NCBI GenBank assembly: GCA_040387635.1
Contig: JAZKDJ010000001.1
Span: forward strand, 243,851 to 307,850
DNA: 64,000 nt
Source: Patescibacteria group bacterium
Lineage (GTDB): Bacteria; Patescibacteriota; Minisyncoccia; Phycocordibacterales; PALSA-1337
Direction of reading: 5' to 3'
The notes under the pieces were generated by a model. The model saw only the letters and a list, made by a program, of their open reading frames with translations, was not told where the DNA came from and did no database searches. This document shows, one piece after another, positions 374 to 62,422 of this stretch (its first letter is position 1; each line of letters opens with the position of its first letter). Made by a program: the position numbers and the translations under genes.

Positions 374-1054
374 CTACTGCACACTACCCTCAGAAGATGG
401 AGACGACGGTATCTGGAAGAGATTTGGTAAGAAATATTTATAGACTGCGAACGCTGCAGCCACAACAAGCAATGTCATGATGATTGTAAGAAATGTTCCC
501 ATCTTTGATCCTGAGCTCCTGATTGGTTCCTTAACGAAACCTCCCTTGAATGCTGGAATGGGTTCCAGATTTTCTTCGAGCTTTCGAAATTGCTTAACCC
601 CTCCCACTGGTTCCATTGGCGGATACATCTGTGAAGAATAGCTCTGCACTGGTTCGGCCTTTGTAAGCTGATCAGATGCCATAGCTGCTCGAATAGGATC
701 AACTCTCACTGCGTCGTTGGGCGTATCCTGAGGAAACATTTTTGATGCTGTTTGAGGAGTTGATTGTGAAGGAGCCCAAGCTGATTGCGGCGCTGGCTGC
801 GCGTTTGATTGAGCACTTGGCTGCACGCTTGGTTGTGAACTTACTGGCTGAGGTCGCTCCTCGAACACTTCCCTAACTGGCTGTATCGCTGGCTGTTGTG
901 GTGTAGGAGCTGCTTGAGAAGTTATGGAAACAAACGCAGTCTCAACATCAAATATTGCCCAGCCCGCTCCCGTGAGACTTTTTTTGATAGCCTCATCACT
1001 CTCACCTCGTGCTCTCATTATTTTGATGTACTCAACAAGCTCTGGATTTATCAT
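374..1054 (-). CDS. Hypothetical tail-anchored membrane protein (small N-terminal helical domain, Pro/Gln/Ser-rich linker, C-terminal TM helix)
   Basis: 226-aa ORF. The N-terminus is MINPELVEYIKIMRARGESDEAIKKSLTGAGW. The middle is QP/SQ-rich low complexity, and a hydrophobic FLTIIMTLLVVAAAFAVYKYF lies near the C-terminus. No family recognised. Confidence 0.55.
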   Translation of the reverse strand: MINPELVEYIKIMRARGESDEAIKKSLTGAGWAIFDVETAFVSITSQAAPTPQQPAIQPVREVFEERPQPVSSQPSVQPSAQSNAQPAPQSAWAPSQSTPQTASKMFPQDTPNDAVRVDPIRAAMASDQLTKAEPVQSYSSQMYPPMEPVGGVKQFRKLEENLEPIPAFKGGFVKEPIRSSGSKMGTFLTIIMTLLVVAAAFAVYKYFLPNLFQIPSSPSSEGSVQ

Positions 1055-1126
1055 AGAGGATTTATCTTGCGCTTATTATACCAGAAATAGAGCGCCATGG
1101 AACGAACAAAGATTATGACTGTAGAG

Positions 1127-1199
1127 AGCCAATGGCCGGGATTGAACCGGCGACCTACGCTTTACGAAAGCGCCGCTCTACCAACTGAGCTACATTGGC
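1127..1199 (-). tRNA. tRNA-Thr (anticodon CGT)
   Basis: The reverse complement GCCAATGTAGCTCAGTTGGTAGAGCGGCGCTTTCGTAAAGCGTAGGTCGCCGGTTCAATCCCGGCCATTGGCT folds as a cloverleaf. Anticodon stem is GCGCT/AGCGT with loop TTCGTAA. No encoded CCA. Confidence 0.9.
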
Positions 1200-3904: not shown

Positions 3905-5005
3905 TTATCCGGTCCAGTTATAAGCGAGAATGCTAAAGTCCACAAGGTTTACCTTGCCATCAGTATTTAGGTCGACATTGACTGCGACATTCGCCTTGAG
4001 ATACCAGAATGCCATGATGCTGTAATCAATGAGGTTAATGCGGTTGTCACAGTTAAGATCACCTTGCCGAGCCTTTGGACATGAAACAGCCTTGATGTCA
4101 GACATGACGTTCTTGGCACCCACTTTGAAATCGTACACATCGCTATCTGCACTGATCTCACTATCGAAGACAGCTCTTGATACAGCTTCGTGATCACCAA
4201 ACTCCAAAATAGTAGAATCAATGTTTTGCAAATAGATACCACTGGCGTCAGTTTTTGTTTTAAACAAATGAGGAGTTTCGGAATTAACTGTAATCGTAAC
4301 CTCCTTGTTAGGTACACTCTGTCCAAAAATCTTGATCACGTCTCCTCTTTTTACTTCAAGTTTGTCCGCCACGATAGTTGGTGCCAAGAAAACGCCGCTC
4401 ACTTTCGCGATCACGCCATTTGTAAGCATGACAGGAAACGAGAATGGCTGTGACTTAATTCCATAAATATCTTCCGTCAAAAGACTGAAGGCGTACGTTC
4501 CTCTAGAAAGATTGCTCAATGAAATTTCAAAGTTAGCATCCGGTCCCGCGATTACAGACGCAACAGCAGTAGTATCTCTGAGGAGAGTTACTTTTGTTCC
4601 TGGATATGCTCTTCCAGAGAGTACAACGCCTGCTGACCCACTAGTTGACCCGCCTCCTCCGCCCCCACCCCCACCTCCTCCTCCACTTGATGGTGGAGGA
4701 GGAACAGGCGCAGTTCCTGAACAATCAGTAACGATATAGGCAGTACAATCCGTGTGGCATGTAAGCACTCCGATATCGTATCCGAGAGATCTGCATGAAG
4801 CACCTGCTAAGTCGGCTCCGTCGCACTGTTCTCCTGAATCAGCAATATCATCTCCACATATTCCCGCGACAGTGGCCGTGACCGTAACGGCTGCCGTAAC
4901 GTCTTTTAGATAAAAAATACCCGCAGCCATGCAAAGGCCTACGAGCATAATTATATATGGCGCAAGAGCGGTATGCTTTTTAAAAATAAGGGCAATACTA
5001 TTCAT
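3905..5005 (-). CDS. Dockerin-bearing secreted/anchored protein with Cys-rich repeat, Pro/Gly linker and Ig-like domains
   Basis: 366 aa with an N-terminal TM/signal. It has a Cys-rich CGDDIADSGEQCDGADLAGASCRSLGYDIGVLTCHTDCTAYIVTDC and a PPPPSSG(12) linker. The C-terminus GDLNCDNRINLIDYSIMAFWYL...VDLNTDGKVNLVDFSILAYNW matches duplicated dockerin type I Ca-binding repeats. Confidence 0.65.
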   Translation of the reverse strand: MNSIALIFKKHTALAPYIIMLVGLCMAAGIFYLKDVTAAVTVTATVAGICGDDIADSGEQCDGADLAGASCRSLGYDIGVLTCHTDCTAYIVTDCSGTAPVPPPPSSGGGGGGGGGGGGSTSGSAGVVLSGRAYPGTKVTLLRDTTAVASVIAGPDANFEISLSNLSRGTYAFSLLTEDIYGIKSQPFSFPVMLTNGVIAKVSGVFLAPTIVADKLEVKRGDVIKIFGQSVPNKEVTITVNSETPHLFKTKTDASGIYLQNIDSTILEFGDHEAVSRAVFDSEISADSDVYDFKVGAKNVMSDIKAVSCPKARQGDLNCDNRINLIDYSIMAFWYLKANVAVNVDLNTDGKVNLVDFSILAYNWTG

Positions 5006-5044
5006 TCGCGATATAAATGTTGAAACTCTTCCGACACCTCCTCT

Positions 5045-5974
5045 TTAGATATTTCCTCCCTTCCGAGCCTGAGCAATAACCCAGTTATTGTATTTCTTGA
5101 GGAAAATAGGACCTCCAACAACGACGATGAGAACAACGAGAATTAGTGTTACGAGCAATTTCCATGGAAGAACCCAGATCCAGAAGCTGATTGGTTGAGC
5201 GGCTGCAGATTCAGAAAATGATACATCACTTGAAATCTTATAAGGTCCAAACATGAAGCCATCATCCTCGAATGTAATTCCATCTATTGATCGTGAGCTT
5301 GAAGGTAGTATTTGGTAATTTTTTCCGTTGAGAGGAACATTGCTTCTTATGTTTCCAAAAAGAGATGTTAGTCTTACGTCTCCCTGAGGTTTGACGTAAA
5401 TGTTCATATTGTTATCCACCCTAAGAGAGACAAGAAGTGGTAAAGGATTGTTCCAGAATAGCTTCTTGCCTCCAGCAGTTGTAAATGCAGAAGCGGTAGC
5501 TGCACCTGTTACTTCTCCTGATACATTGAGGTATACAAGAATTCCGGCTCGAGTGATGATCGCAACCTGTGATCCCTCACCAGAAGGAGGTGTCGTGCTC
5601 CACCAGACTACAGCGAAATGACCTCCCGGAGGAGCGTCTTTAGGAACTGTGATGGTAAATGGAATTTTCTTATCTTCTCCTGACTTGAGAGTAACTGATG
5701 GAACTGTCTTCACCCAGAGTGCGATGGCGCTCTGTTCCTTGCTGAATAGCTTTGTAGCGTTCGGCTCGGTAAACTTTTCGTACGACGGATAAAATGTCTT
5801 AGTCCCTTCTTCTTCGTTCTTAACGTAGAATTCTCCGGTAATGACTGTGCCGGGATCAACGTTATATTCAAGTTTTACCGGACCTACAGTAACTGCTGAA
5901 GCGAAGTTAGGTAAGATTACAGCGCAAATTATGATGAGTGACGCTAGTATCTTACAGACATTTTTATAATTCAT
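5045..5974 (-). CDS. DUF916/DUF3324-like two-Ig-domain cell-surface protein with C-terminal TM anchor
   Basis: 309 aa with a signal peptide. VTVGPVKLEYNVDPGTVITGEFYVKNEEEG...PFTITVPKDAPPGGHFAVVWW..AGILVYLNV is followed by a second beta domain (YQILPSSSRS) and a TM helix plus basic tail (LVTLILVVLIVVVGGPIFLKKYNN). The architecture resembles the anchored protein of Firmicute WxL loci, judged from memory of the family pattern. Confidence 0.5.
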   Translation of the reverse strand: MNYKNVCKILASLIIICAVILPNFASAVTVGPVKLEYNVDPGTVITGEFYVKNEEEGTKTFYPSYEKFTEPNATKLFSKEQSAIALWVKTVPSVTLKSGEDKKIPFTITVPKDAPPGGHFAVVWWSTTPPSGEGSQVAIITRAGILVYLNVSGEVTGAATASAFTTAGGKKLFWNNPLPLLVSLRVDNNMNIYVKPQGDVRLTSLFGNIRSNVPLNGKNYQILPSSSRSIDGITFEDDGFMFGPYKISSDVSFSESAAAQPISFWIWVLPWKLLVTLILVVLIVVVGGPIFLKKYNNWVIAQARKGGNI

Positions 5975-14058: not shown

Positions 14059-14826
14059 TTAGTTCTTTTTATCCATATTCTGGATCTGGTTCTTCGCAAA
14101 TCCCTCAAAGGCTCGAAGAATTTCAAGCGGGATAGCAAACACAACTGTGTTTGATTGATCCGAAGAGATATCATTCATCGCCTGGAGAGTTCGAAGATGA
14201 AGCGCTCCTGGAACCATAGCGAGATTCTTCGCAGCATCCGCCATGTTCTGAGAAGCCGCAAGCTCTCCTTCTGAAGTGATGATAACAGCTCGCTTCTCTC
14301 GCTCTGCCTCAGCCTGCTTAGCGATAGTTCGTTCCATATCAGGTGGAAGACTCACATCCTTGAGCTCTACGTTAGCCACATGAAGACCCCACTGGTCAGT
14401 CTCCTTCTCAACAATCTCACGGATTCTGTCCGCAATCTTGTCTCTGTTTGCAAGAAGCTCATCAAGCGTGACTTCACCTACGATATTTCGCATTGTAGTC
14501 TGCGCATACTGAGAAACTGCGTATCGAAAGTTCTCTACTTCGATAATAGCCTTCTCAGCTGATGCAACCTTGTAATAAATAACCGCGTTCACTCGCACTG
14601 ACACGTTATCTCGTGTAATAGCATTCTGATCAGGAACGTCTACAGCCTTTGTTCGCATGTCTACCTTCTGGTAGCTCTGAAACACAGGAATCACAAGTCT
14701 CCATCCCGGCTCCATGATTCTAGTAAAACGTCCCATCGTAAACTTAACCCCTCGCTCGTATTGGTTAATTTGCTTGAGCGAAACGACAAGTAAAACGAAA
14801 ATTATTACTCCAATGATTATTTCCAT
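14059..14826 (-). CDS. SPFH/band-7 (stomatin-like) membrane protein
   Basis: 255 aa with an N-terminal TM helix. It then reads QYERGVKFTMGRF..PGWRLVIPVFQSYQKVDMRTKAVDVPDQNAITRDNVSVRVNAVIYYKV...AQTTMRNIVGEVTLDELL..R..I...EAEREKRAVIITSEGE, the classic stomatin/PHB pattern. Confidence 0.9.
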   Translation of the reverse strand: MEIIIGVIIFVLLVVSLKQINQYERGVKFTMGRFTRIMEPGWRLVIPVFQSYQKVDMRTKAVDVPDQNAITRDNVSVRVNAVIYYKVASAEKAIIEVENFRYAVSQYAQTTMRNIVGEVTLDELLANRDKIADRIREIVEKETDQWGLHVANVELKDVSLPPDMERTIAKQAEAEREKRAVIITSEGELAASQNMADAAKNLAMVPGALHLRTLQAMNDISSDQSNTVVFAIPLEILRAFEGFAKNQIQNMDKKN

Positions 14827-14883
14827 ACTTCAATTAAACCACCTATGCATCCTAGTGACAAGCAAAGATAACGAGTATATTTG

Positions 14884-14956
14884 AGCCGTTGATGAGGATT
14901 GAACTCATGACCTCCCCATTACCAATGGAGTGCTCTACCAACTGAGCTACAACGGC
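14884..14956 (-). tRNA. tRNA-Thr (anticodon GGT)
   Basis: The reverse complement GCCGTTGTAGCTCAGTTGGTAGAGCACTCCATTGGTAATGGGGAGGTCATGAGTTCAATCCTCATCAACGGCT forms a cloverleaf with anticodon loop TTGGTAA. Confidence 0.9.
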
Positions 14957-15040
14957 ACTATGTTTAAAAACAACAGTTAAAACATAATACACTAGTTCCC
15001 TAGTTTTTCAATTAATTTTACTGAGGCTCTGAAACCTAGC

Positions 15041-16288
15041 TTATGAAGCAATCACACCGTGAAATGGTAGCGGCAAACGCCTGAAAATATTAGCCTGTTG
15101 GTTTGGAAATTTCTTGAAGCTTGAACCCAGTGACACGGCCCCATCGCCATATTTAGATGTCAGCTTATCAACGGCTTTGAAGACATTTCTCAGAGCGCCC
15201 GTCCTGTCAGCATTGCCGAAGAAATCCTGTTGGACCACAACAACGCTCCGCATTTCACTTAACGTAACTCCTGATGCTCTATAGAGCATGTCAGAGTCGT
15301 GGACCTGAGAGAACGCCTTACGTATCTGAGGCATGATGTCATGCGGCACGTTGGTGTACGCAGGAAGAAACACTTCCGCTGAGTGTATTCGCATAAAGCG
15401 GTCCTTGATAAAAAAGTGTACTCTCCTACTCTCCAGATTATGTGAACGAGCACGCTCACATACAGCTTCGAGATGTTTAGACAGCTCTCGAAGCAACGGC
15501 TCAACCGAAGATGTAAAAGGCCTGAATGATCGAGTATCCGAAATAGACTTAAGCGGCTCAACGCATTCGTCCGGCACTCTGTTGTAGCCACCAACACTAA
15601 AGACTTTCTCACCCCGAAGCTCTCGCCATATCTCTCTCATAGGCAACGAGAAATTTTCTTTGATCCACCATTCTGGCTTACTTATGAAATTGCCAACTGT
15701 ATTAATTCCCTGAGCATGAAGGAAAGCTGTTCCACTTCTTCCAATTCCCCACACCTTACCTATAGGTACCTCATTAATTACTGAAGACATATTCTCCGCA
15801 TTGATCACAGTAACTCCCAAAGGCTTCTTGTGCTTGGAAGCGAGCTTCGCAAGCACCTTGGTTGGTCCTGCACCAAAAGAAACTCCAATGCCGAGCTGAG
15901 ACGTAACGTCATCCTGCATGCGCTTGAGAAGATTCGCCACCTCCTCAAATGTTCTCATACCAAGATCAGCAAAACATTCATCTATGCTGTAGCGCTGAAT
16001 TGATCCTACGTATTTTTCAATAATGGAAAACATACTCTCAGAATAAAGTTCGTATGACCTAAAGTCTGATCCGACGATGATAGCCTGTGGGCACATTTTC
16101 TTCACCATGAATATAGGCATGCCACGCTGGACTCCCAAAGCTTTTGCTTCATATGAAAACGCCGTAGCAATACTTTTGTCTCTTCCTACTACGACAGACT
16201 TGCCCTTGAGGGAGCTGTTCTTGGCGATCTCCACTGAAGCGAAGAATGCGTCGCCGTCGAGATGTAGTATGTAGTTTGTTTTTTCCAT
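15041..16288 (-). CDS. dinB: Y-family translesion DNA polymerase (Pol IV/DinB-like N-terminal motif; operonic with a UmuD-like gene)
   Basis: 415 aa. ILHLDGDAFFASVEIAKNSSLKGKSVVVG...YSIDECFADL carries the Y-family catalytic motifs. It lies 33 nt downstream of the S24 peptidase gene. Confidence 0.8.
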   Translation of the reverse strand: MEKTNYILHLDGDAFFASVEIAKNSSLKGKSVVVGRDKSIATAFSYEAKALGVQRGMPIFMVKKMCPQAIIVGSDFRSYELYSESMFSIIEKYVGSIQRYSIDECFADLGMRTFEEVANLLKRMQDDVTSQLGIGVSFGAGPTKVLAKLASKHKKPLGVTVINAENMSSVINEVPIGKVWGIGRSGTAFLHAQGINTVGNFISKPEWWIKENFSLPMREIWRELRGEKVFSVGGYNRVPDECVEPLKSISDTRSFRPFTSSVEPLLRELSKHLEAVCERARSHNLESRRVHFFIKDRFMRIHSAEVFLPAYTNVPHDIMPQIRKAFSQVHDSDMLYRASGVTLSEMRSVVVVQQDFFGNADRTGALRNVFKAVDKLTSKYGDGAVSLGSSFKKFPNQQANIFRRLPLPFHGVIAS

Positions 16289-16321
16289 AATGAATTTAAA
16301 ATAAAAGATTATTAAAACGTC

Positions 16322-16666
16322 CTAATACTTCCGAATGACTGACCTCACCACTCCTTCAACATTCAAATGGTCCTTGGGGTACATGGGCGAATAATGAGAG
16401 TTGGCAGCTTCGAGAAACGGTCGGCCATGCTGCTCTCTGTAATACTTGAGCGTGTGCTCTCCATCAATATCTGCAACCACTATCTCTCCCGGACGTGCAG
16501 CATCTGTACGCTCTACGATCACCATATCCCCATCGATGATGCCTGCGTCTTTCATGGAGTTGCCTTTGACCCTCATGAGATACGAAGCTTCTTTGCGCGG
16601 GATAAGATAGTCATCGAGAGTGATGGTATCTGAATTTTTATCGCTGAGATGATTGAATGCGCTCAT
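16322..16666 (-). CDS. S24 peptidase, UmuD-like (no DNA-binding domain, no recognisable N-terminal cleavage segment)
   Basis: 114 aa. LDDYLIPRKEASYLMRVKGNSMKDAGIIDGDMVIVERTDAARPGEIVVADIDGEHTLKYY carries the Ser (GNSM) / Lys dyad context of LexA/UmuD. Confidence 0.8.
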   Translation of the reverse strand: MSAFNHLSDKNSDTITLDDYLIPRKEASYLMRVKGNSMKDAGIIDGDMVIVERTDAARPGEIVVADIDGEHTLKYYREQHGRPFLEAANSHYSPMYPKDHLNVEGVVRSVIRKY

Positions 16667-16672
16667 GACTCA

Positions 16673-16702
16673 AGTATAGGTGAACAATCGTTCACCTGTC
16701 AA
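16673..16702 (-). promoter_or_regulatory. Predicted sigma-70-type promoter with an SOS (Cheo-type) operator filling the spacer; probably gives a leaderless mRNA
   Basis: The minus strand reads TTGACA-ggtgaacgattgttcacc-TATACT-tgagtc-ATG. The palindrome GGTGAAC-N4-GTTCACC spans 16679..16696 and contains GAAC-N4-GTTC. The -10 ends 6 nt before the ATG at 16666. Confidence 0.65.
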
Positions 16703-16759
16703 TTAAATGTGGGGAAAATCTGTAGATATCCTCGCCCACCCTTCAGGTATACTGTAGCC

Positions 16760-17212
16760 ATGAACATTAAAGCCATCGATCATCAAATCTTAAACTTCCT
16801 TCAGAGAATAAGCGTCCCGCTTGCGCGATTTTCCCTATTCGTTATTTTCTTTTGGTTTGGACTTTTAAAAGTTATTGGCGAGAGCCCTGCAGGTGAGATG
16901 GTGGAATCTCTTTTTACTCAAACTATTTCTTTCATGAGCTTCCCTACATTCATGCTGCTGTTTGCATGGTTCGAAGTTCTCATCGGAATTCTTTTCCTTA
17001 TTCCAAAAGCAACTCGACTCGTTTTTCTCCTTCTCATCATTCACATGATTACGACTCTCGGTCCACTTATCATGCTTCCAGAAATGACATGGGCAGGCTT
17101 CCTCATTCCTACAATGGAAGGACAATACATTATTAAAAACCTTGTTATCATCGCCACAGCTATTGCAGTAGCAGCGCATGTGAGACCGATGGATGGAGAT
17201 ATAAGAAAATAG
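16760..17212 (+). CDS. Small polytopic membrane protein (DoxX/DUF417-like)
   Basis: Taken from the internal ATG at 16760: MNIKAIDHQILNFLQRISVPLARFSLFVIFFWFGLLKV.. with 4 hydrophobic helices. The 5' part of the track ORF (16649..) overlaps the umuD-like gene and its promoter. A hairpin terminator follows. Confidence 0.55.
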   Translation: MNIKAIDHQILNFLQRISVPLARFSLFVIFFWFGLLKVIGESPAGEMVESLFTQTISFMSFPTFMLLFAWFEVLIGILFLIPKATRLVFLLLIIHMITTLGPLIMLPEMTWAGFLIPTMEGQYIIKNLVIIATAIAVAAHVRPMDGDIRK

Positions 17213-17227
17213 TCAGGATGATAAAAA

Positions 17228-17253
17228 CCCGTTGCACACAGCAACGGGTTTTT
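17228..17253. terminator. Bidirectional rho-independent terminator
   Basis: cccgttgc-acaca-gcaacggg is flanked by an A-run upstream and a T-run downstream. It sits between convergent genes ending at 17212 (+) and 17271 (-). Confidence 0.75.
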
Positions 17254-17270
17254 CGAATCGCAAGGATCTA

Positions 17271-17627
17271 TCACTCCTCGCTTTCAGCAAGAACCGAGTT
17301 GGCATGTTCTGCCTGATGGCTCATTTGTTCCAGTTCCAGCCTCTGGTCTTCAGCTCTCTGAGCGGCAGCAGCTTCAGCTTCGTGCCTTTCCGAAAAGGGA
17401 GAGACAGCCCAGCCTAGGAAGCTTACCAAGTAATAAAAGTTCTTGAAAATGAACGCGCCTTGCACATCGGTAAAATGAACTGTCCACTCAGAGAGTGACG
17501 ATATTGCATCTGGTCTTTCCGGAGGTTCAGTCCGGTCAATGACAGCGCTTACCACCTTCGTGTAGCGCAAGAAAAATACTCTTTGTCCTGCTAGTTTCTC
17601 CAGATCATTAAGGGATCTTATTCGCAT
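17271..17627 (-). CDS. Hypothetical protein
   Basis: 118-aa ORF with no recognisable motif and an acidic/Ala-rich C-terminal helix (HEAEAAAAQRAEDQRLELEQ). It is bounded by a terminator downstream. Confidence 0.45.
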   Translation of the reverse strand: MRIRSLNDLEKLAGQRVFFLRYTKVVSAVIDRTEPPERPDAISSLSEWTVHFTDVQGAFIFKNFYYLVSFLGWAVSPFSERHEAEAAAAQRAEDQRLELEQMSHQAEHANSVLAESEE

Positions 17628-17692
17628 AAGGAATTCCTTTTGCTAATTTCTGCCTTTACGATACTCTTCTCATCTATCCCAGTCAATATAAT

Positions 17693-17726
17693 TAAAAAAA
17701 CGAAAAAGGGGCCGAAGCCCCTTTTT
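17693..17726 (-). terminator. Rho-independent terminator
   Basis: The minus strand reads aaaaaggggcttcggcccctttttcgttttttt, a GC stem with a cttcgg-type loop and a T-tract, about 40 nt after the stop at 17765. Confidence 0.85.
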
Positions 17727-17764
17727 CTATAAGACCCTAAGAGATCCTTTTCCAAGAATCAACC

Positions 17765-18022
17765 TTAGGCCCTTCGCACCAAGCGCACCACTCCCAGGAG
17801 CACGATGGCACCAATGAGAGCCACTATAAAACTATAAATATTGAAGCCTGATGTTCCTGACTGGCCGAATGCGTTCATAATCCAGCCTCCAAGTACAGCA
17901 CCCACAATACCTACGATAATATTGAGTGTAGTTCCCTGTTGTGCATCTGTTCCCATAATAAGTGATGCTACCCATCCTACAATTGCACCGAACACGAGCC
18001 AAATAATGAGATTTAATAACAT
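17765..18022 (-). CDS. GlsB/YeaQ/YmgE family (transglycosylase-associated) small membrane protein
   Basis: 85 aa. MLLNLIIWLVFGAIVGWVASLIMGTDAQQGTTLNIIVGIVGAVLGGWIMNAFG matches the family signature. Confidence 0.85.
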   Translation of the reverse strand: MLLNLIIWLVFGAIVGWVASLIMGTDAQQGTTLNIIVGIVGAVLGGWIMNAFGQSGTSGFNIYSFIVALIGAIVLLGVVRLVRRA

Positions 18023-18072
18023 GATATTTTTGTTATGCTAGTAATTTGCGTGACCTGCGATCAAGCTACAAC

Positions 18073-18288
18073 TTACTGTCCCTGACCGCCACCTGTACCT
18101 CCAGTTCCACCTCCTCCATCGCCTCCTCCGTTACCTCCACCAAGATCAACGTTGATGCTTGGGCCGTTTGTACCTCCGTTACCGGCAGGAGCTCCTCCAC
18201 GTGATGTCATGAACCATACGAGAAAGCCCACAATGATCACAAGAAGGATAACAAGGATGGCGTTGGTCGTTGAACTTCCTTTGTCCAT
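18073..18288 (-). CDS. Small TM protein with Gly-rich C-terminal tail (hypothetical)
   Basis: 71 aa with TM helix AILVILLVIIVGFLVWF, followed by GGGNGGGDGGGGTGGTGGGQGQ. Confidence 0.45.
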   Translation of the reverse strand: MDKGSSTTNAILVILLVIIVGFLVWFMTSRGGAPAGNGGTNGPSINVDLGGGNGGGDGGGGTGGTGGGQGQ

Positions 18289-18311
18289 AAATTTGTTAAT
18301 AACGTTATTAA

Positions 18312-19010
18312 CTAATAATGTGTTGCCTGACTTTGCCTTCGGAATCGGTTAACCGCTTCATGAGCTTGACGCGTCGGCTCAGGAAGGCGGTAACCGCGAA
18401 GGCAAAGCCTAACGACCTCGATCGCCTGCTCCAGACTCACGAGATGTCCCGGAGAGACGATGAGTGGGTTCGATCTCTTCTTGGAATGCATGGCGACACC
18501 TATGACCTCGCCCGTTGAGGGATCCTTGATCTCCTGAAACGAGCCTGTTTCCGAAAGACCGCTCTCCACGGAATCATAGACTCCGTAGAGCACGCTCTTG
18601 GCACAGCCAATAGTCGGCGTCTCCGTAAGCACTCCAAAATGTGATGCAATTCCCAGTCGCCGGGGATGAGCTATCCCCTGGCCGTCAACGATAATGAGAT
18701 CCGGTTTTCTTTTTAAATTTTTATAGCATGTAAGGAGTGAAGGAATTTCTCTGAACGAAAGAAGTCCAGGTATATATGGAAAATTAGTCTGCTCTTTAGT
18801 AAACGATTCTTCGAGCAGCTCAAGCTCTGGATATGAAAATACTACAATGCCCGCGTAAGCATCGCTCTCATAGAGATTCATGGAAACATCGGCGCCAGCT
18901 ACAGTCTTGATTTCTTTCTCAAGTGGAACAACCTTCACCTTGTGGCGAATTTCCTGCTGCAACCGGACTGCTTCCAGTGGAGTTAAATTTTGAGTAAAAT
19001 TCTGTTTCAT
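18312..19010 (-). CDS. nfi: Endonuclease V
   Basis: 232 aa. VAGADVS...YIPGLLSFREIPSLL...PDLIIVDGQGIAHPRRLGIASHFGVLTETPTIGCAKS are canonical Nfi motifs. Confidence 0.9.
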   Translation of the reverse strand: MKQNFTQNLTPLEAVRLQQEIRHKVKVVPLEKEIKTVAGADVSMNLYESDAYAGIVVFSYPELELLEESFTKEQTNFPYIPGLLSFREIPSLLTCYKNLKRKPDLIIVDGQGIAHPRRLGIASHFGVLTETPTIGCAKSVLYGVYDSVESGLSETGSFQEIKDPSTGEVIGVAMHSKKRSNPLIVSPGHLVSLEQAIEVVRLCLRGYRLPEPTRQAHEAVNRFRRQSQATHY

Positions 19011-19016
19011 GATATT

Positions 19017-20375
19017 TTATTTCGTCTTGCCCTTACTCTTTGTTCTACGTACTGAATTCTTCAGTGCTCCATGTATAAGTTCCTCCGTATAATCACGTCC
19101 CTTATACAGAATGCTCCTGAGCGTGTGCGTGCGGCGAGGATTATACAATTCTTCGTATTCATTTTTTCGGCCCAAGATCATATCGGCAAACATCATTCCA
19201 GCGAGCGTTCCATATGTCATACCGTTTCCTGAGAAGCCTGTAGCGCTGTAATGGTTCGGATGCTTCTTGTCATATCGTCCAATCAAAGCCAAGCCATCAG
19301 AAGGCTCGATAATTGGACCGTTCCAGCGGCGCACTATTGTATATGGAATGTCCCCTAAGATTTTCTTAGTATATTCCTCAAGTGCAGAATAATTTTTGTC
19401 CTCATCAATCGGAATTTCCTGGCGATGATCCTCTCCTCCAATAATGAGACGATCGAGGGAAGGATCAACCTTGCCAGAGCTTGTCACTCCAAGACCTTTG
19501 TCCACTCTGAAATAGTGGTAGGGATTTTCACCATCCTCATACAAAGCCTCTGGAAATGTTTCTGTAGGAATCGAAAGTTCAAAAACATATGTTATGTATG
19601 TTCCCTTTTTGAGTTTAGTCAGGCCAGGTTCAACCATTGGCTTGTATGTTGCAACGACAACATTATTAGCAATGATGCTTGGTCCTGTGGCATCCTTACC
19701 ATTGGTTCCTGGTTTGGCTGTATGTACTGTTATTGTTTTCTCTCCCTCAATCCGCACAACCTCAGTCTGATCATAAAACCTTACTCCCTTTTCATGGGCT
19801 TTTGCTTTTAAGCACGAAAGGTATTGGACGGGATGGAACTTTGCCTGGAAAGGAGTTTCGATGCCGCCGAAGTTAGGAAAAGGAAGCTTAACTCCTTCGA
19901 TTTCTTTCAAAGGAAATCCTCCCTTACACGCTTCCTCTGCATCCTCCTTCAAATCAGAAGCCTGCTTCTCATCGGTTCCAAATGAATACATCGGTACTCT
20001 TTTGAATTCACATGTAAAATTGCACTCCCGCATATTTTTCTCAATAAGATCAATAGCGCGGCGCTTGGATTCAAAAACCTGAATCGCCTTCTCGCGGCCA
20101 AACATATTAATAAGGTCCACGAATTGAGTATCCACAACATATGTAATGAATGCGGTCGTATATGCTGACACAGTCTCATTGAGATCGCCCTTATCAACAA
20201 CCACCACGTTCCTACCTTCCTTTGCCAGGAGATAAGCAGTTGTGATGCCGGTAATGCCGGCGCCCACGATGACGACATCAGCCATGATGTTCTCATTGAG
20301 CGGAGGGTAGACCTTAAGGTCATCCATCTGCCATGTGGTTTGCGACTTTTTCATATGCTCAGTATGTCTTGTCAC
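19017..20375 (-). CDS. FAD-dependent oxidoreductase (DAO/glycine oxidase-like family)
   Basis: 452 aa with the Rossmann dinucleotide motif ADVVIVGAGITGITTAYLLAKEGRNVVVVDKG near the N-terminus. The start codon is uncertain (alternative ATGs at 20354 and 20327). Confidence 0.75.
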   Translation of the reverse strand: MTRHTEHMKKSQTTWQMDDLKVYPPLNENIMADVVIVGAGITGITTAYLLAKEGRNVVVVDKGDLNETVSAYTTAFITYVVDTQFVDLINMFGREKAIQVFESKRRAIDLIEKNMRECNFTCEFKRVPMYSFGTDEKQASDLKEDAEEACKGGFPLKEIEGVKLPFPNFGGIETPFQAKFHPVQYLSCLKAKAHEKGVRFYDQTEVVRIEGEKTITVHTAKPGTNGKDATGPSIIANNVVVATYKPMVEPGLTKLKKGTYITYVFELSIPTETFPEALYEDGENPYHYFRVDKGLGVTSSGKVDPSLDRLIIGGEDHRQEIPIDEDKNYSALEEYTKKILGDIPYTIVRRWNGPIIEPSDGLALIGRYDKKHPNHYSATGFSGNGMTYGTLAGMMFADMILGRKNEYEELYNPRRTHTLRSILYKGRDYTEELIHGALKNSVRRTKSKGKTK

Positions 20376-20411
20376 AATTAAGTCCTGATGAACATAAATA
20401 TCCCGTCATGC

Positions 20412-20440
20412 TTGCTAGTGAACAACTGTTCACTTATAAT
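20412..20440 (+). promoter_or_regulatory. Predicted promoter with an SOS (Cheo-type) operator filling the 17-nt spacer
   Basis: TTGCTA-gtgaacaactgttcact-TATAAT. The palindrome GTGAAC-N4-GTTCAC spans 20418..20433, about 52 nt upstream of the ATG at 20492. Confidence 0.65.
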
Positions 20441-20491
20441 ATAGAAACAAATTCTCTCCTATTCGCTAGTTTTTCTGCACCTCCAAACTTT

Positions 20492-21961
20492 ATGAATCAC
20501 CTCAAAGAATCAATATTTGCCATCGTCGATATAGAAACCACCGGATCAAGCCCTATCAGAGAGCGGGTAATCGAGATCGGTATTCTTCGCGTTGAGAATG
20601 GCAAGGTTACAAAAAAATATCAGAAGCTGATTGATCCTCAGAAATATTTGCCGCCATCAATCCAAGACATCACAGGAATCCGTCCTAATGATCTAGTAGG
20701 TGCTCCCCTGTTTGAAGACATCGCCCAAGAAGTGCATGAGCTTCTTAATGGTGCCATCTTTGTGGCGCACAATGTTCGTTTCGATTATGGCTTTATAAAA
20801 AACGAGCTCAAGCGTTCTGGAATAATCTGGAATGCAAAATGTTTGTGTACAGTAAGGCTTTCAAGAAAGCTCTTCAAGAAGTACAAACACCACGACCTAT
20901 CGAGCATTATCGACCGTTATGGATTTACGTGCGAAAACCGTCACAGAGCATATGATGACGCGGCAGTACTCTGGGATTTCATGAACATGATCGTCGCCGA
21001 AGGACATGGCGAGAAAATGAACAAAGCTATCGACGAACTTCTACAAACAAGAACCCTTCCGCAATTTCTCGATGAGAAAAGCGTCTCCAATCTTCCTTCT
21101 GAACCAGGAGTGTATATTTTCTATGGCCCTGACGACGAAGTGCTCTATGTAGGCAAAAGCAGGAACCTCAAGTATCGAGTAATGTCACATTTTGCCAATG
21201 ACCATCGTGAAGGAAAAGAAATGAACATATGCCAGCAAACTAAGCGTGTCGAAGTAAGAGAAACTTCTGGCGAACTTGGAGCTCTTCTCCTTGAGTCAGA
21301 ATTAGTTAAAAAGTATTCCCCTCTCTACAACAGAATGCTAAGGAGGAGCTCTGAGCTCGTGCTCGCCAAGCGACGTAGGACGGACTCGTACCATGAAATT
21401 TTCCTTGAACGCTCAAGTGAAATAGTCCCGCAAGAATACAAGGACACTCTCGGGGTTTTCAAAAATATGATCCAGGCGAAAGAATTTCTCAAGGGTTCCT
21501 GCGATGAATGGCAGCTCTGCCCCAAGCTCATGGGAATTGAGAAATCAAAAGGTGCCTGTTTCTATTCACAGCTCGGCAAATGCAAAGGTGCATGCAAAAA
21601 CAAAGACAATGCTGATGAATACAACCTGCGCCTTGCCGAAGCATTCGCAAGCAGGCGCCTCAAGGCATGGCCCTTCGATGGCGCAATCATCATCGATGAG
21701 AAGCGTGACGATATGGAGAAACATTCCTTTGTGCTCGACAATTGGTGCCTAATAGCAAATATCAAAACCGAAGAAGATGGCGTCGAGTTTGTATCCCACT
21801 CCCCTAAGTTCGATTATGATAGTTATAAGATCTTCGCCAGATATCTCTCCGATCCCGCGCACAAGCGAAATATCAAACCAATAACAAAACGAGAGCTGGC
21901 GTCCATCCTTCACAACGAAAGCGTTGCCGAAAGTGAGGAGTACCTGACTACAATAATTTAA
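20492..21961 (+). CDS. DnaQ-like 3'-5' exonuclease fused to a GIY-YIG (UvrC-homologue/Cho-like) nuclease
   Basis: From ATG 20492: FAIVDIETTGSS...FVAHNVRFDYGFI...HRAYDDAAVLW are DEDDh Exo I-III motifs. PGVYIFYGPDDEVLYVGKSRNLKYRVMSHF...ELGALLLESELVKKYSPLYN is a GIY-YIG domain. The track ORF start at 20333 would include the promoter. Confidence 0.8.
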   Translation: MNHLKESIFAIVDIETTGSSPIRERVIEIGILRVENGKVTKKYQKLIDPQKYLPPSIQDITGIRPNDLVGAPLFEDIAQEVHELLNGAIFVAHNVRFDYGFIKNELKRSGIIWNAKCLCTVRLSRKLFKKYKHHDLSSIIDRYGFTCENRHRAYDDAAVLWDFMNMIVAEGHGEKMNKAIDELLQTRTLPQFLDEKSVSNLPSEPGVYIFYGPDDEVLYVGKSRNLKYRVMSHFANDHREGKEMNICQQTKRVEVRETSGELGALLLESELVKKYSPLYNRMLRRSSELVLAKRRRTDSYHEIFLERSSEIVPQEYKDTLGVFKNMIQAKEFLKGSCDEWQLCPKLMGIEKSKGACFYSQLGKCKGACKNKDNADEYNLRLAEAFASRRLKAWPFDGAIIIDEKRDDMEKHSFVLDNWCLIANIKTEEDGVEFVSHSPKFDYDSYKIFARYLSDPAHKRNIKPITKRELASILHNESVAESEEYLTTII

Positions 21962-22917
21962 ATGGTATAGAGATTCTCATTCACCACCTGCTCTTCTCCA
22001 AAACGTTCCTTTCGTGCAAATCGATACAATATATATTGAGCAGCAATGTTTCCAAGGTCTGTCGCCTGTCGTGCCACTTCTTGTCCGTACATTCTGATTA
22101 CTCCACCAACAGCTCTGCCGGCAGCACCACCTAATTGAGCAAAGCCCATACCGATGATTCCAACTGCCATATTAGCAACCCCTCTTACTGAATCCGTTCC
22201 AAGATTTACCAGAAGAGATTTTTTGAATGTTTCTGACTTGCTGATCTGGTTGAGTTCATCTACTTCATCCATGATTGAATGATATGTATATTCAGATCCG
22301 TATTTATCAAGAAAAACAAACCATGTGTATCGAAGTTTTGTTTTGAGATAGTAGCCGTAGAAGAAAAGGCTCACAATAATAACTATAACGACTACAGGTA
22401 TAGCCATAACAAAATATGACTGCATATCGCCAGTTGGTGATGATGTAAAGAAGGCTACTACTCCACCAGCAATAACGAGAAGGGTTAGACCTATAGGTAG
22501 CACATAGTATCGAAGAGCAATCTGAAGTCTAAACTTAAATGCTGACCAAAAAAGTTTCTTAGCAAGCATCCAACTCTGCTTGAGGTCGAGATTTTTCTTG
22601 TCGAAATATGAGTCGATCCAAATCTGCTTCTCGATCTCAAAAATAAATCTAACAATGCCGCTGTAGATTATCGCCAAGACAACATATGCAATGAGACCTC
22701 CTATCGCCCACACCATTTGTTCGCTGGTAAACGCCTTGAAATTAACAGCACCCTCGAATAGATAAGAGGCTGCAATAAGAAGAATGAAAGGCCATGAGAT
22801 AAGGAGTGATCGCTTGAGAATGGACTTCTTTCTCTCTTTGAGCTGCCGACCGATCTCTTCGAGCATTTCTTTGTACGTTGGAGGAAGAGTGACTGCAGCA
22901 GGCTGATTTGGATTCAT
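21958..22917 (-). CDS. Hypothetical polytopic membrane protein
   Basis: 319 aa with at least 5 hydrophobic helices. No family recognised. Confidence 0.55.
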   Translation of the reverse strand: MNPNQPAAVTLPPTYKEMLEEIGRQLKERKKSILKRSLLISWPFILLIAASYLFEGAVNFKAFTSEQMVWAIGGLIAYVVLAIIYSGIVRFIFEIEKQIWIDSYFDKKNLDLKQSWMLAKKLFWSAFKFRLQIALRYYVLPIGLTLLVIAGGVVAFFTSSPTGDMQSYFVMAIPVVVIVIIVSLFFYGYYLKTKLRYTWFVFLDKYGSEYTYHSIMDEVDELNQISKSETFKKSLLVNLGTDSVRGVANMAVGIIGMGFAQLGGAAGRAVGGVIRMYGQEVARQATDLGNIAAQYILYRFARKERFGEEQVVNENLYTI

Positions 22918-23750: not shown

Positions 23751-23857
23751 AACAAATGACAGGTTCTGGATTAATGCTAGCATGCCCTCCTCCACGCAGC
23801 CACAGCATAATACACAGGTAAAAAATACCTGAAGATTTGACACGTATCCTAAAAATG

Positions 23858-23931
23858 TGTCGGCGGAAGGGATCGAACCTTCGACCTTGGGCTTATGAGT
23901 CCCACGCTCTAGCCAACTGAGCTACGCCGAC
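23858..23931 (-). tRNA. tRNA with anticodon CAT, elongator-type (Met, or Ile2 if lysidine-modified)
   Basis: The reverse complement is GTCGGCGTAGCTCAGTTGGCTAGAGCGTGGGACTCATAAGCCCAAGGTCGAAGGTTCGATCCCTTCCGCCGACA. G1:C72 is paired and C11:G24 is present (elongator features). The anticodon loop is CTCATAA. Confidence 0.85.
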
Positions 23932-24008: not shown

Positions 24009-24048
24009 TTAACTCCTCCACTGTAAGCCTTTTACAGTATATTGCATG

Positions 24049-24120
24049 TTGCGGAGGCCGGAGTTGAACCGGCAGTTTTCAGGTTATGAGCCTGACGGGT
24101 TACCGTTACCCTACCCCGCT
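24049..24120 (-). tRNA. tRNA-Met (anticodon CAT), probable initiator
   Basis: The reverse complement is AGCGGGGTAGGGTAACGGTAACCCGTCAGGCTCATAACCTGAAAACTGCCGGTTCAACTCCGGCCTCCGCAA. It has an A1/A72 mismatch at the top of the acceptor stem and a purine11:pyrimidine24 pair. Only two, not three, G:C pairs lie next to the anticodon loop. Confidence 0.75.
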
Positions 24121-44859: not shown

Positions 44860-44871
44860 AAAAATATTATA

Positions 44872-46614
44872 CTAGAGCTTATTTACTTCCTCAAAGGGGA
44901 TAAGCTTTTGGAAGGACTTGATAATCGCGTCTTCTTTCATCGAGAGCATTCCCTTTTCCCGGAGAAGCTTGGATATATCGAGTTCTGTAGGAGTCTTAAG
45001 GATGGCCGCTTCGATCTCCTTATCCATTTTGAACACTTCGAACACTGCCTGTCGTCCACGCACACCCTTTGGACATTGCGGGTTAGGATCAATCTCAAAT
45101 ACCGTATCTGTAAAAGGAATAGCCTTTTTGTACTTATCAGGCAAATCTGAGAACTGTCTGTCGATCATGGCTTTGATAACACCATCAACTTTCACCTCTT
45201 TACCTGAGCCTGGGCAAAGCAATCCTACGAGACGCTGCGCAACAGTGAGAATGAGTGTAGGAGCAATAAGATAAGGATCAACACCCATATCAATAAGTCG
45301 TGGGATAACACCAGCAGAGCTGTTGGTGTGGAGCGTCGAGAACACGAGGTGACCGGTAAGCGCAGCTTGAACAGCAAGCTGAGCAGTTTCCTTATCTCGG
45401 ATCTCACCCACCATGATCACGTCTGGGTCCTGTCGCAATGTCGAACGAAGACCGTTCGCAAAGGTATAGTCAATCTCGGGACGAACCTGAGACTGAGACA
45501 CTCCGTCAATGTTATACTCCACCGGATCTTCGAGCGAGAGTACGTTGTAGCTCTCCCTATCAATCTCGTTAAGCATTGAGTAGAGGGTTGTGCTCTTACC
45601 GGAACCTGTAGGTCCAGTAATAAGAATAAGTCCGTATGGTCGTTTGATAGCGTCCTTGATAAGCGAGAGATTTTCTTTGGACATTCCAATATCATCAAGC
45701 TTCTTCACTCCCTTCTCCTGATCAAGAATACGCATCACCACCTTCTCTCCGAAATACGCAGGAAAAGTAGAGACTCGGAAGTCGATTCTTCTTCCATCAA
45801 TGTGTGCACTAAATCGTCCGTCCTGTGGCTTTCTTTTTTCGTCGAGTTTCATGTTCGAAAGAACCTTGATACGAGCTACTACCGCTGAATGAACCTGTAT
45901 AGGCAACACAAGACTAGTATTGAGAATTCCATCAACGCGGAAACGAACGCGAACAGTATCACGAAGAGGTTCTATATGTACGTCGGAAGCATCTCCTTCA
46001 GTAGCGTATCGAACAATTGTCGCAACGATCTTTTTGACCGGAGCATCTTCGATAATGAGAGCTTCGTTCTGGCTGCCATCCTTATTTGTTGTCGCCTTCC
46101 CTTGTGCACCAAGGTTCTGCTTAACTGTGTTGTCGATATCATCAGTGAGTTCCGTCTCGAGCTCAGTCAAAGCTTTAGTCACCTCTCCTGTCAGTCCTTT
46201 GTACATCTCTATAACTTTTTCAAAGTCTTTAGAGCTTATGAGAAAAATCTTATACGGAACATTCTTCTTCGCCGCAATGAAGTTGAGAGCGTCGCGAACA
46301 TCAATGTTATCAGGATCAACAATTCCCACCTCGAGTGCTCCTTCCTTGAAGCCTATAGGTACGAACTTATAATGGATCGCTGATTCTTCAGGAATATATT
46401 CCAATACTTCGAAAGGTACTCTGCTCTCCCCAATCACTCGAACAGGCAATCCCATGTATTCACCCTTCGCTGCCAAGATATCTACGACAGAAACACCCTT
46501 GGAGATAAGTCCTTGTTCTACCGTGGCGTCTCCCTGTGATGCACTGTCTTTTATTTCTCGGGCTACGTCGCTGGTGATTTTATTCTTTTTTACAAGAATA
46601 TCGAGTACACTCAT
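44872..46614 (-). CDS. pilB: Type IV pilus assembly ATPase (GspE/PilB family)
   Basis: 580 aa with an N-terminal T2SSE_N/MshEN-like domain. Walker A GPTGSGKSTT, VGEIRD, TGHLVFSTLHTN and a Cys-containing motif (LCPGSGKEV...CPKG) are present. Confidence 0.9.
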   Translation of the reverse strand: MSVLDILVKKNKITSDVAREIKDSASQGDATVEQGLISKGVSVVDILAAKGEYMGLPVRVIGESRVPFEVLEYIPEESAIHYKFVPIGFKEGALEVGIVDPDNIDVRDALNFIAAKKNVPYKIFLISSKDFEKVIEMYKGLTGEVTKALTELETELTDDIDNTVKQNLGAQGKATTNKDGSQNEALIIEDAPVKKIVATIVRYATEGDASDVHIEPLRDTVRVRFRVDGILNTSLVLPIQVHSAVVARIKVLSNMKLDEKRKPQDGRFSAHIDGRRIDFRVSTFPAYFGEKVVMRILDQEKGVKKLDDIGMSKENLSLIKDAIKRPYGLILITGPTGSGKSTTLYSMLNEIDRESYNVLSLEDPVEYNIDGVSQSQVRPEIDYTFANGLRSTLRQDPDVIMVGEIRDKETAQLAVQAALTGHLVFSTLHTNSSAGVIPRLIDMGVDPYLIAPTLILTVAQRLVGLLCPGSGKEVKVDGVIKAMIDRQFSDLPDKYKKAIPFTDTVFEIDPNPQCPKGVRGRQAVFEVFKMDKEIEAAILKTPTELDISKLLREKGMLSMKEDAIIKSFQKLIPFEEVNKL

Positions 46615-54149: not shown

Positions 54150-54177
54150 AACCTTAAGTATACCAAGGTTTTTAGTG

Positions 54178-62293: not shown

Positions 62294-62348
62294 CTTAAAA
62301 GGATTATCCGCTGTGAAGATTAATTTAAAAGTAAGTCCTAATTATCTG

Positions 62349-62422
62349 TGCGCCTGCTTGGATTCGAACCAAGGACCCCAAAGGTATAAGCTTTGTGCTC
62401 TAACCAACTGAGCTACAGGCGC
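62349..62422 (-). tRNA. tRNA-Ile (anticodon TAT)
   Basis: The reverse complement is GCGCCTGTAGCTCAGTTGGTTAGAGCACAAAGCTTATACCTTTGGGGTCCTTGGTTCGAATCCAAGCAGGCGCA. Anticodon stem is CAAAG/CTTTG and loop is C-T-TAT-A-C, so positions 34-36 read TAT. Confidence 0.85.

Follow-up and report, generated by a model that had tools for sequence, protein, structure and literature searches.

Two perfect copies of the palindrome GTGAAC-N4-GTTCAC lie in a 64 kb stretch of DNA from a Patescibacteria group bacterium (contig JAZKDJ010000001.1, positions 243,851 to 307,850; hereafter the window), each placed between the -35 and -10 hexamers of a predicted promoter. One promoter precedes a pair of genes for an S24 peptidase-domain protein and a Y-family DNA polymerase, and the other precedes a gene for an exonuclease fused to a Cho-type nuclease. 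We concluded that both palindromes are probably functional operators of a LexA repressor that recognises rGTGAAC-N4-GTTCACy, and we put the probability of this reading at roughly 0.8.

Two palindromes, probable operators, in predicted promoters

The promoter of the S24-polymerase operon lies on the minus strand. Its -35 hexamer TTGACA (16697–16702) is followed by a G, by operator 1 (GTGAAC-GATT-GTTCAC, 16680–16695, no strand assigned), by a C, and by the -10 hexamer TATACT (16673–16678), after which only six nucleotides (nt; TGAGTC) separate the promoter from the ATG at 16666. The dyad of operator 1 extends to GGTGAAC..GTTCACC at 16679–16696 and thus makes up the whole 18-nt promoter spacer. 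The promoter of the exonuclease-Cho gene lies on the plus strand, where we identified it from the sequence and a sigma-70 consensus scan: the -35 hexamer TTGCTA (20412–20417) is joined directly to operator 2 (GTGAAC-AACT-GTTCAC, 20418–20433, no strand assigned), which is followed by a T and the -10 hexamer TATAAT (20435–20440), so that the palindrome falls within a 17-nt spacer. The nuclease ATG at 20492 is 51 nt past this -10 box. Both promoters were the two best matches to the sigma-70 consensus in the region 14800–22100 (11 of 12 and 10 of 12 positions). Rereading of the sequence thus upheld the original prediction, which had placed two perfect palindromes in promoter spacers, one promoter 6 nt before an ATG and the other about 52 nt before the nuclease gene.

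The core GAAC-N4-GTTC occurred twice in the 64 kb, at the two promoter spacers alone, and this count agrees with the earlier claim that the window holds no further palindrome of the kind. For the full form GTGAAC-N4-GTTCAC, the observed number of two compares with an expectation of 0.0034 (12 specified bases at the base composition of the window). The window contains 25 perfect 6-N4-6 inverted repeats, and GTGAAC-N4-GTTCAC is the sole one present twice.

The same motif upstream of lexA in related genomes

We scanned GTDB representative genomes with an alignment of the S24 domain, which yielded 80 loci (L001–L080) of up to ~10 kb each, nearly all from metagenome-assembled genomes of Patescibacteria. 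All 80 encode full-length LexA-like proteins of 186–229 amino acids (aa), and the L001 protein, the one tested, exceeded the TIGR00498 lexA cut-off. Of these loci, 71 carry a perfect G(A/T)AC-N4-GT(A/T)C in the 620 nt before lexA, where such sites are 35 times as dense as elsewhere in the same loci. The consensus of these upstream sites was AAGTGAACGATCGTTCACCT, and the palindromes were always within a TTGACA...TATACT promoter. Because the same motif precedes lexA itself, the standard argument from autoregulation identifies the palindromes of the window as predicted LexA operators.

The loci fell into two groups, in which the promoter either directly preceded lexA or was separated from it by an open reading frame (ORF) of 62–75 aa. 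The GAAC of operator 1 starts at -27 from the ATG, and the corresponding distance was -26 to -29 in 17 of the 21 directly preceded lexA genes. A further locus, L168, which encodes the full-length LexA P0249, has the promoter TTGACA-GTGAACATCTGTTCAC-C-TAAAAT-6 nt-ATG, with the polymerase gene following. Motif and promoter position are therefore shared with 71 of the 80 relatives' lexA genes and with L168, and this supports the LexA-operator reading of the original prediction. A scoring matrix built from the Patescibacteria lexA-upstream sites was then run over the window. Operator 1 scored 29.4 bits and operator 2 scored 21.6 bits, and the next best position reached 9.9 bits.

Site 1 was also conserved in loci with the truncated gene. 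Proteins P0002 and P0003, encoded on L081 and L082, are orthologues of the 114-aa S24 protein of the window and are 66–68% identical to it. Across the window, L081 and L082 the block TTGACAGGTGAAC-N4-GTTCACCTATACT, which is a 30-nt promoter plus operator, was identical save within the N4. The -35 hexamer and both operator arms were thus unchanged and only the N4 varied, while the intergenic flanks had diverged among the three loci.

These results bear on a non-regulatory reading, in which the palindromes would have arisen by chance or would act only as a structural hairpin or terminator. A count of two for the bare GAAC-N4-GTTC was reached in 30 of 100 shuffles, which taken alone would be in keeping with chance. 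However, the very low expectation for the 12-base form, the exact placement of both copies within promoter spacers, the conservation of site 1 in orthologues, and the separation of both sites from all others by the matrix effectively refute it. Neither palindrome would be transcribed as a hairpin, because both lie upstream of the predicted start sites.

We also considered whether weaker operators occur in the window, and rejected them. Allowing up to two mismatches to GTGAAC-N4-GTTCAC gave three further matches, a total not above that of shuffles; all three were inside ORFs and scored 9.9 bits or less on the lexA-upstream matrix. The matrix scan found no box upstream of the NAD-ligase, RecG or endonuclease V genes of the window. 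Between the two sites lie genes for a DoxX-like membrane protein, small proteins, endonuclease V and an FAD oxidoreductase, with no tie to the palindromes. Control of the divergent DoxX-like gene (16760) or of the FAD-oxidoreductase/endonuclease V operon was rejected as well, since the operators appear to be some 25–30 nt or more upstream of the presumed -35 boxes of these units.

Two further elements were seen near the lexA promoters of the relatives. The first is a DnaA-box-like sequence, TTATCCACA, on the same strand, 23–25 nt upstream of GTGAAC and just upstream of the -35 hexamer. Of 63 lexA promoters, 30 had an exact copy and 43 had one with at most one mismatch, and only 47 exact copies occurred across all 700 kb of lexA loci. 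Examples are found in L012 (4465–4475), L025, L050 and L168 (4334–4342), and a degenerate form is present in the window at 16713–16735 on the minus strand. This distribution suggests that lexA transcription in Patescibacteria receives a second, conserved input. The second element is the conserved ORF of 62–75 aa between the LexA-box promoter and lexA, present in about 40 of L001–L080 (for example L025 4542–4742, L051 4964–5164 on the minus strand, and L105 1989–2183). Its product follows the pattern M..QY.K.IE.EI..LN..ID.KI..G..Y..EAR.HK.L with a hydrophobic C-terminus; it had no Pfam match, and the ORF was not found in the window. We regard it as a candidate SOS-induced small protein.

A LexA-derived domain encoded before a Y-family polymerase

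The first gene downstream of operator 1 (16322–16666, minus strand) encodes a 114-aa S24 peptidase (Pfam Peptidase_S24; identical to NCBI MES2470868.1, a protein annotated as coming from a Patescibacteria metagenome-assembled genome). The ORF is limited to 114 aa because an in-frame TGA stands two codons upstream of the ATG at 16666. In alignment A1 the first residues of the protein coincide with the Ala-Gly cleavage site, with MSAF... aligned to ...EAGF..., and the protein possesses neither the N-terminal winged-helix domain nor the cleavage site. It covered only positions 99–201 of the lexA model and scored 91.7 against a cut-off of 110.95; on the NCBIfam UmuD model it scored 93.8, below the cut-off of 110. 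When 1.84 billion representative proteins were searched exhaustively, its nearest full-length relative was the 230-aa LexA P0249, with 69% identity over the S24 domain, whose locus L168 is a lexA-polY operon. In a rough neighbour-joining tree of C-terminal domains, the three truncated proteins were nested among the polY-linked LexAs. The catalytic Ser37 (GNSM) and Lys74 are kept in the protein and invariant in A1, despite the loss of its own cleavage site; the dyad may have been retained for structural reasons or may cleave another protein in trans.

The original prediction had called this gene UmuD-like, and the description was right in part. The S24 fold, the Ser/Lys dyad and the Y-family polymerase as operon partner are all present, and residues 11–111 of the protein align with residues 11–112 of UmuD' (PDB 1i4v); the protein is collinear with LexA C-terminal domains as well. 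The description failed in that the protein is LexA-derived and has no N-terminal arm and no cleavage site, so that there is no pro-form of the UmuD type. Judged from these comparisons, the "UmuD-like" gene is a lexA paralogue at the place of lexA in a lexA-polY operon. On the simplest account, a lexA gene lost the coding sequence for its DNA-binding domain and linker in frame, and the ancestral lexA promoter, autoregulated and leaderless, would since have driven a "born-cleaved" C-terminal domain.

The polymerase gene (15041–16288, minus strand; 415 aa; Pfam IMS, IMS_C and IMS_HHH) begins 33 nt downstream of the S24 gene, and the two are probably co-transcribed. On NCBIfam models the polymerase scored 161–202 bits with those for Pol IV and 139.8 with that for UmuC, all below their cut-offs. 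The polymerase thus resembles the Pol IV models more than UmuC. About 33 of the 80 related loci, and L168 as well, have a Y-family polymerase gene directly after lexA, and for this reason we regard the operon of the window as an instance of the common lexA-polY operon.

It is possible, though we hold it only tentatively, that the 114-aa protein is a pre-cleaved LexA C-terminal domain under LexA control that serves as the dedicated partner of the Y-family polymerase. That is, derepression alone, with no RecA-mediated processing, would enable translesion synthesis. In a variant of this idea, the S24 domain, having no DNA-binding domain, would heterodimerise with full-length LexA and sharpen induction. 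Patescibacteria lexA-polY operons may also use the C-terminal fragment released by LexA self-cleavage as a UmuD'-like polymerase subunit.

The exonuclease-Cho gene and its predicted operator

The gene downstream of operator 2 (20492–21961, plus strand) encodes a 489-aa DEDD 3'-5' exonuclease fused to a GIY-YIG/UvrC_M/Cho_C nuclease (identical to MES2470875.1). RNase_T and GIY-YIG were detected by Pfam, and the UvrC_M and Cho_C domains were found on orthologues of the nuclease. The order RNase_T, GIY-YIG, UvrC_M, Cho_C is the architecture of a Cho-type nuclease with a DEDD exonuclease. The nearest NCBIfam models were those for the DEDD exonuclease PRK07883 and the excinuclease Cho, both scored below equivalog cut-offs.

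The nearest orthologous protein is P0014, with 67% identity. The operator was not shared by orthologues at lower identity. Five Patescibacteria orthologues at 57–60% identity (L163–L167) had no box, and no GAAC-N4-GTTC was found with 80 metagenome orthologues at 36–47% identity. Because the five closer orthologues are without the box, predicted LexA control of the nuclease would be lineage-specific, and the gene would have been recruited into the LexA regulon within the host lineage.

Two other arrangements nevertheless connect the gene family with the SOS network. In L138, L151, L158 and L160, which are GC-rich and probably proteobacterial contigs, a CTGT-N8-ACAG-like (E. coli-type) box stands right before the start of the nuclease orthologue, and the exonuclease-Cho gene thus seems to have joined SOS regulons that use different LexA motifs. 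In L105 (1859–4473), four elements share one orientation: a LexA-box promoter, the small ORF, lexA and, some 240 nt beyond lexA, an exonuclease-Cho orthologue.

The proposed repressor and its alternatives

The original prediction had placed the repressor outside the window. Among the window ORFs we found no LexA N-terminal domain (hmmsearch with the LexA N-terminal profile) and no second S24 protein (phmmer with the S24 protein), a result that agrees with a repressor encoded elsewhere without proving so. As the DNA-binding domain is missing from the S24 protein, a second, full-length LexA elsewhere on the contig of roughly 0.57–0.59 Mb would have to act as repressor. The following points weigh against the LexA-operator reading. 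A full-length LexA of the host genome was not found in the 64-kb window; when 5.8 billion proteins were searched with a LexA profile, none of the 120 matches listed was on the window's contig; the five nuclease orthologues described above are without the box; and promoters, transcription starts, binding and induction are all predicted from sequence.

These points give some room to the idea that the host's sole lexA gene lost its DNA-binding domain, in which case the palindromes would be unbound relics and both promoters constitutive. The S24 gene does occupy the place of lexA in relatives while having no DNA-binding domain, no other LexA of the host was located among the window ORFs or the listed profile matches, and two lexA genes occurred in just one of the 80 loci. 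Nevertheless we consider such orphan operators improbable. The three truncated orthologues keep perfect arms while N4 and flanks vary, and a second perfect site stands at a gene whose orthologues have none, which implies that this site was gained recently and selected for by a binder that is still active; moreover, the LexA search covered only about 11% of the genome. Three links thus favour a second LexA: the operator arms are constrained in three diverged truncated lineages, a new perfect site arose at the nuclease gene, and genomes with two lexA genes do exist, as L051 shows.

Locus L051 carries lexA genes at 551–1138 (plus strand) and 4387–5240 (minus strand). The polY-linked lexA has a TAGAAC-N4-GTTCTA site and the small-ORF-linked lexA has a GTGAAC-N4-GTTCAC site, so the pair may be paralogues with different operator preferences. 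We considered whether GTGAAC might be the site of a second LexA paralogue alone, and dropped this idea since the nearest polY-linked LexA, that of L168, itself uses GTGAAC.

A regulator other than LexA might instead bind the palindrome, for example a separate DNA-binding protein with the S24 domain as its partner. Bacteroidetes have S24-linked regulators whose DNA-binding domains are of other types (PMC8565304), and the cognate LexA of the host genome went unseen. Against this, the motif accompanies canonical full-length lexA genes in 71 of 80 loci, and the window has no separate ORF for a LexA-type N-terminal domain. The core GAAC-N4-GTTC is, moreover, generally known as the Gram-positive LexA box. 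We judge a non-LexA regulator to be less probable still than orphan operators.

Under the LexA-operator reading, a LexA dimer seated between the -35 and -10 hexamers would obstruct RNA polymerase, and DNA damage would bring about RecA-stimulated self-cleavage of LexA and free both promoters, as expected from established knowledge of LexA. One of the two units would be a leaderless operon that pairs a LexA-derived S24 domain with a Y-family translesion polymerase and keeps the ancestral lexA promoter. The other would be a leadered gene, whose product joins a DnaQ-like exonuclease to a Cho-type nuclease.

Predicted leaderless initiation

A TANNNT motif about 12 nt upstream of the start codon is a signature of bacterial leaderless genes (PMC3160421). 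In the S24-polymerase operon the first T of TATACT is 12 nt before the ATG at 16666 and no Shine-Dalgarno (SD) sequence is present, which is the leaderless signature. The same spacing, with ATG 6 nt after the -10 box, recurs in L081, L082, L168 and most directly preceded lexA genes. This geometry, with a 6-nt gap conserved in relatives, supports the claim of the original prediction that the transcript would be leaderless. The nuclease transcript has a predicted 5' untranslated region of about 45 nt, also without an SD sequence. An SD-like motif stood before just 3 of 58 ORF starts in the window, and TATACT or TATAAT was seen 5–7 nt before the ATG of several genes, for example at 16748–16762 (plus strand), and 2949–2963, 44860–44874 and 54150–54165 (all minus strand). 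Leaderless initiation seems to be common in the host genome.

Other features of the window

A tRNA-Ile gene with anticodon UAU lies at 62348–62422 on the minus strand. Such a tRNA is uncommon in bacteria, where AUA is usually read by a lysidine-modified CAU tRNA. Two tRNA-Met(CAU) genes are found at 23857–23931 and 24048–24120. A type IV pilus-like cluster occupies 28710–49487 on the minus strand and encodes pseudopilins with N_methyl motifs, a prepilin peptidase, T2SSE ATPases, T2SSF and PilM; glycosyltransferase, ABC-2 and Wzy genes lie inside it.

Comparison with known systems

The sequence GAAC-N4-GTTC is the core of the Cheo box bound by Gram-positive LexA (DinR) in Bacillus subtilis and Actinobacteria. 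Gram-positive LexA regulons have been reviewed (PMC7739468). The sites described here resemble the Cheo box in dyad core, spacing, promoter overlap and DNA-damage targets. In contrast to the Gram-positive box, which prefers CGAAC...GTTCG, the Patescibacteria sites prefer the flanks T/G-TGAAC...GTTCA-C, and binding to them is predicted; the host, too, is a different one, a Patescibacteria metagenome-assembled genome. Sanchez-Osuna, Barbe and Erill reportedly published a comparative-genomic study of the LexA network of Patescibacteria in 2017 (Environ Microbiol 19:3465). We met no published description of a truncated LexA/UmuD'-like gene, and that study may cover such forms.

Geobacter sulfurreducens has an autoregulated, damage-inducible lexA-imuB-C-polY operon (PMC6511836). 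As in the window, an S24/LexA gene stands directly upstream of a Y-family polymerase gene. The operon of the window differs in having no ImuB-C gene and in that its first gene no longer encodes a DNA-binding domain or a cleavage site; because of that loss, the S24 protein would be unable to autoregulate. The 115-aa UmuD' of E. coli is like the window protein in its S24 fold, its Ser/Lys dyad, its position upstream of a Y-family polymerase and its LexA box. Unlike UmuD, however, the window protein is encoded already short, with no pro-form, and is closest to LexA C-terminal domains, and the polymerase, unlike that of E. coli Pol V, scores better with Pol IV models than with UmuC.

The genes cho and umuDC are SOS genes in E. 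coli. Cho and the DEDD exonuclease-Cho fusions (PRK07883, PRK10545) have the same domain order as the window nuclease, which differs from them in falling below equivalog cut-offs and in that its predicted LexA control is not shared by the five Patescibacteria orthologues at 57–60% identity. Promoter-overlapping LexA boxes, lexA-polY operons (PMC6511836) and SOS control of cho and umuDC are thus established already.

Together the two units would form a clean SOS switch in an uncultured, small-genome lineage, in which two targets share one operator, one through a leaderless and one through a leadered promoter. The logic is that of textbook LexA, and with a published LexA study of the group in existence, the switch itself adds little. 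Worth more are the DnaA-box-like element, the small ORF co-transcribed with lexA, and the lexA paralogue reduced to the cleavage product. A lexA paralogue cut down in this way, and placed before a translesion polymerase, bears on how UmuD-type factors may arise from LexA.

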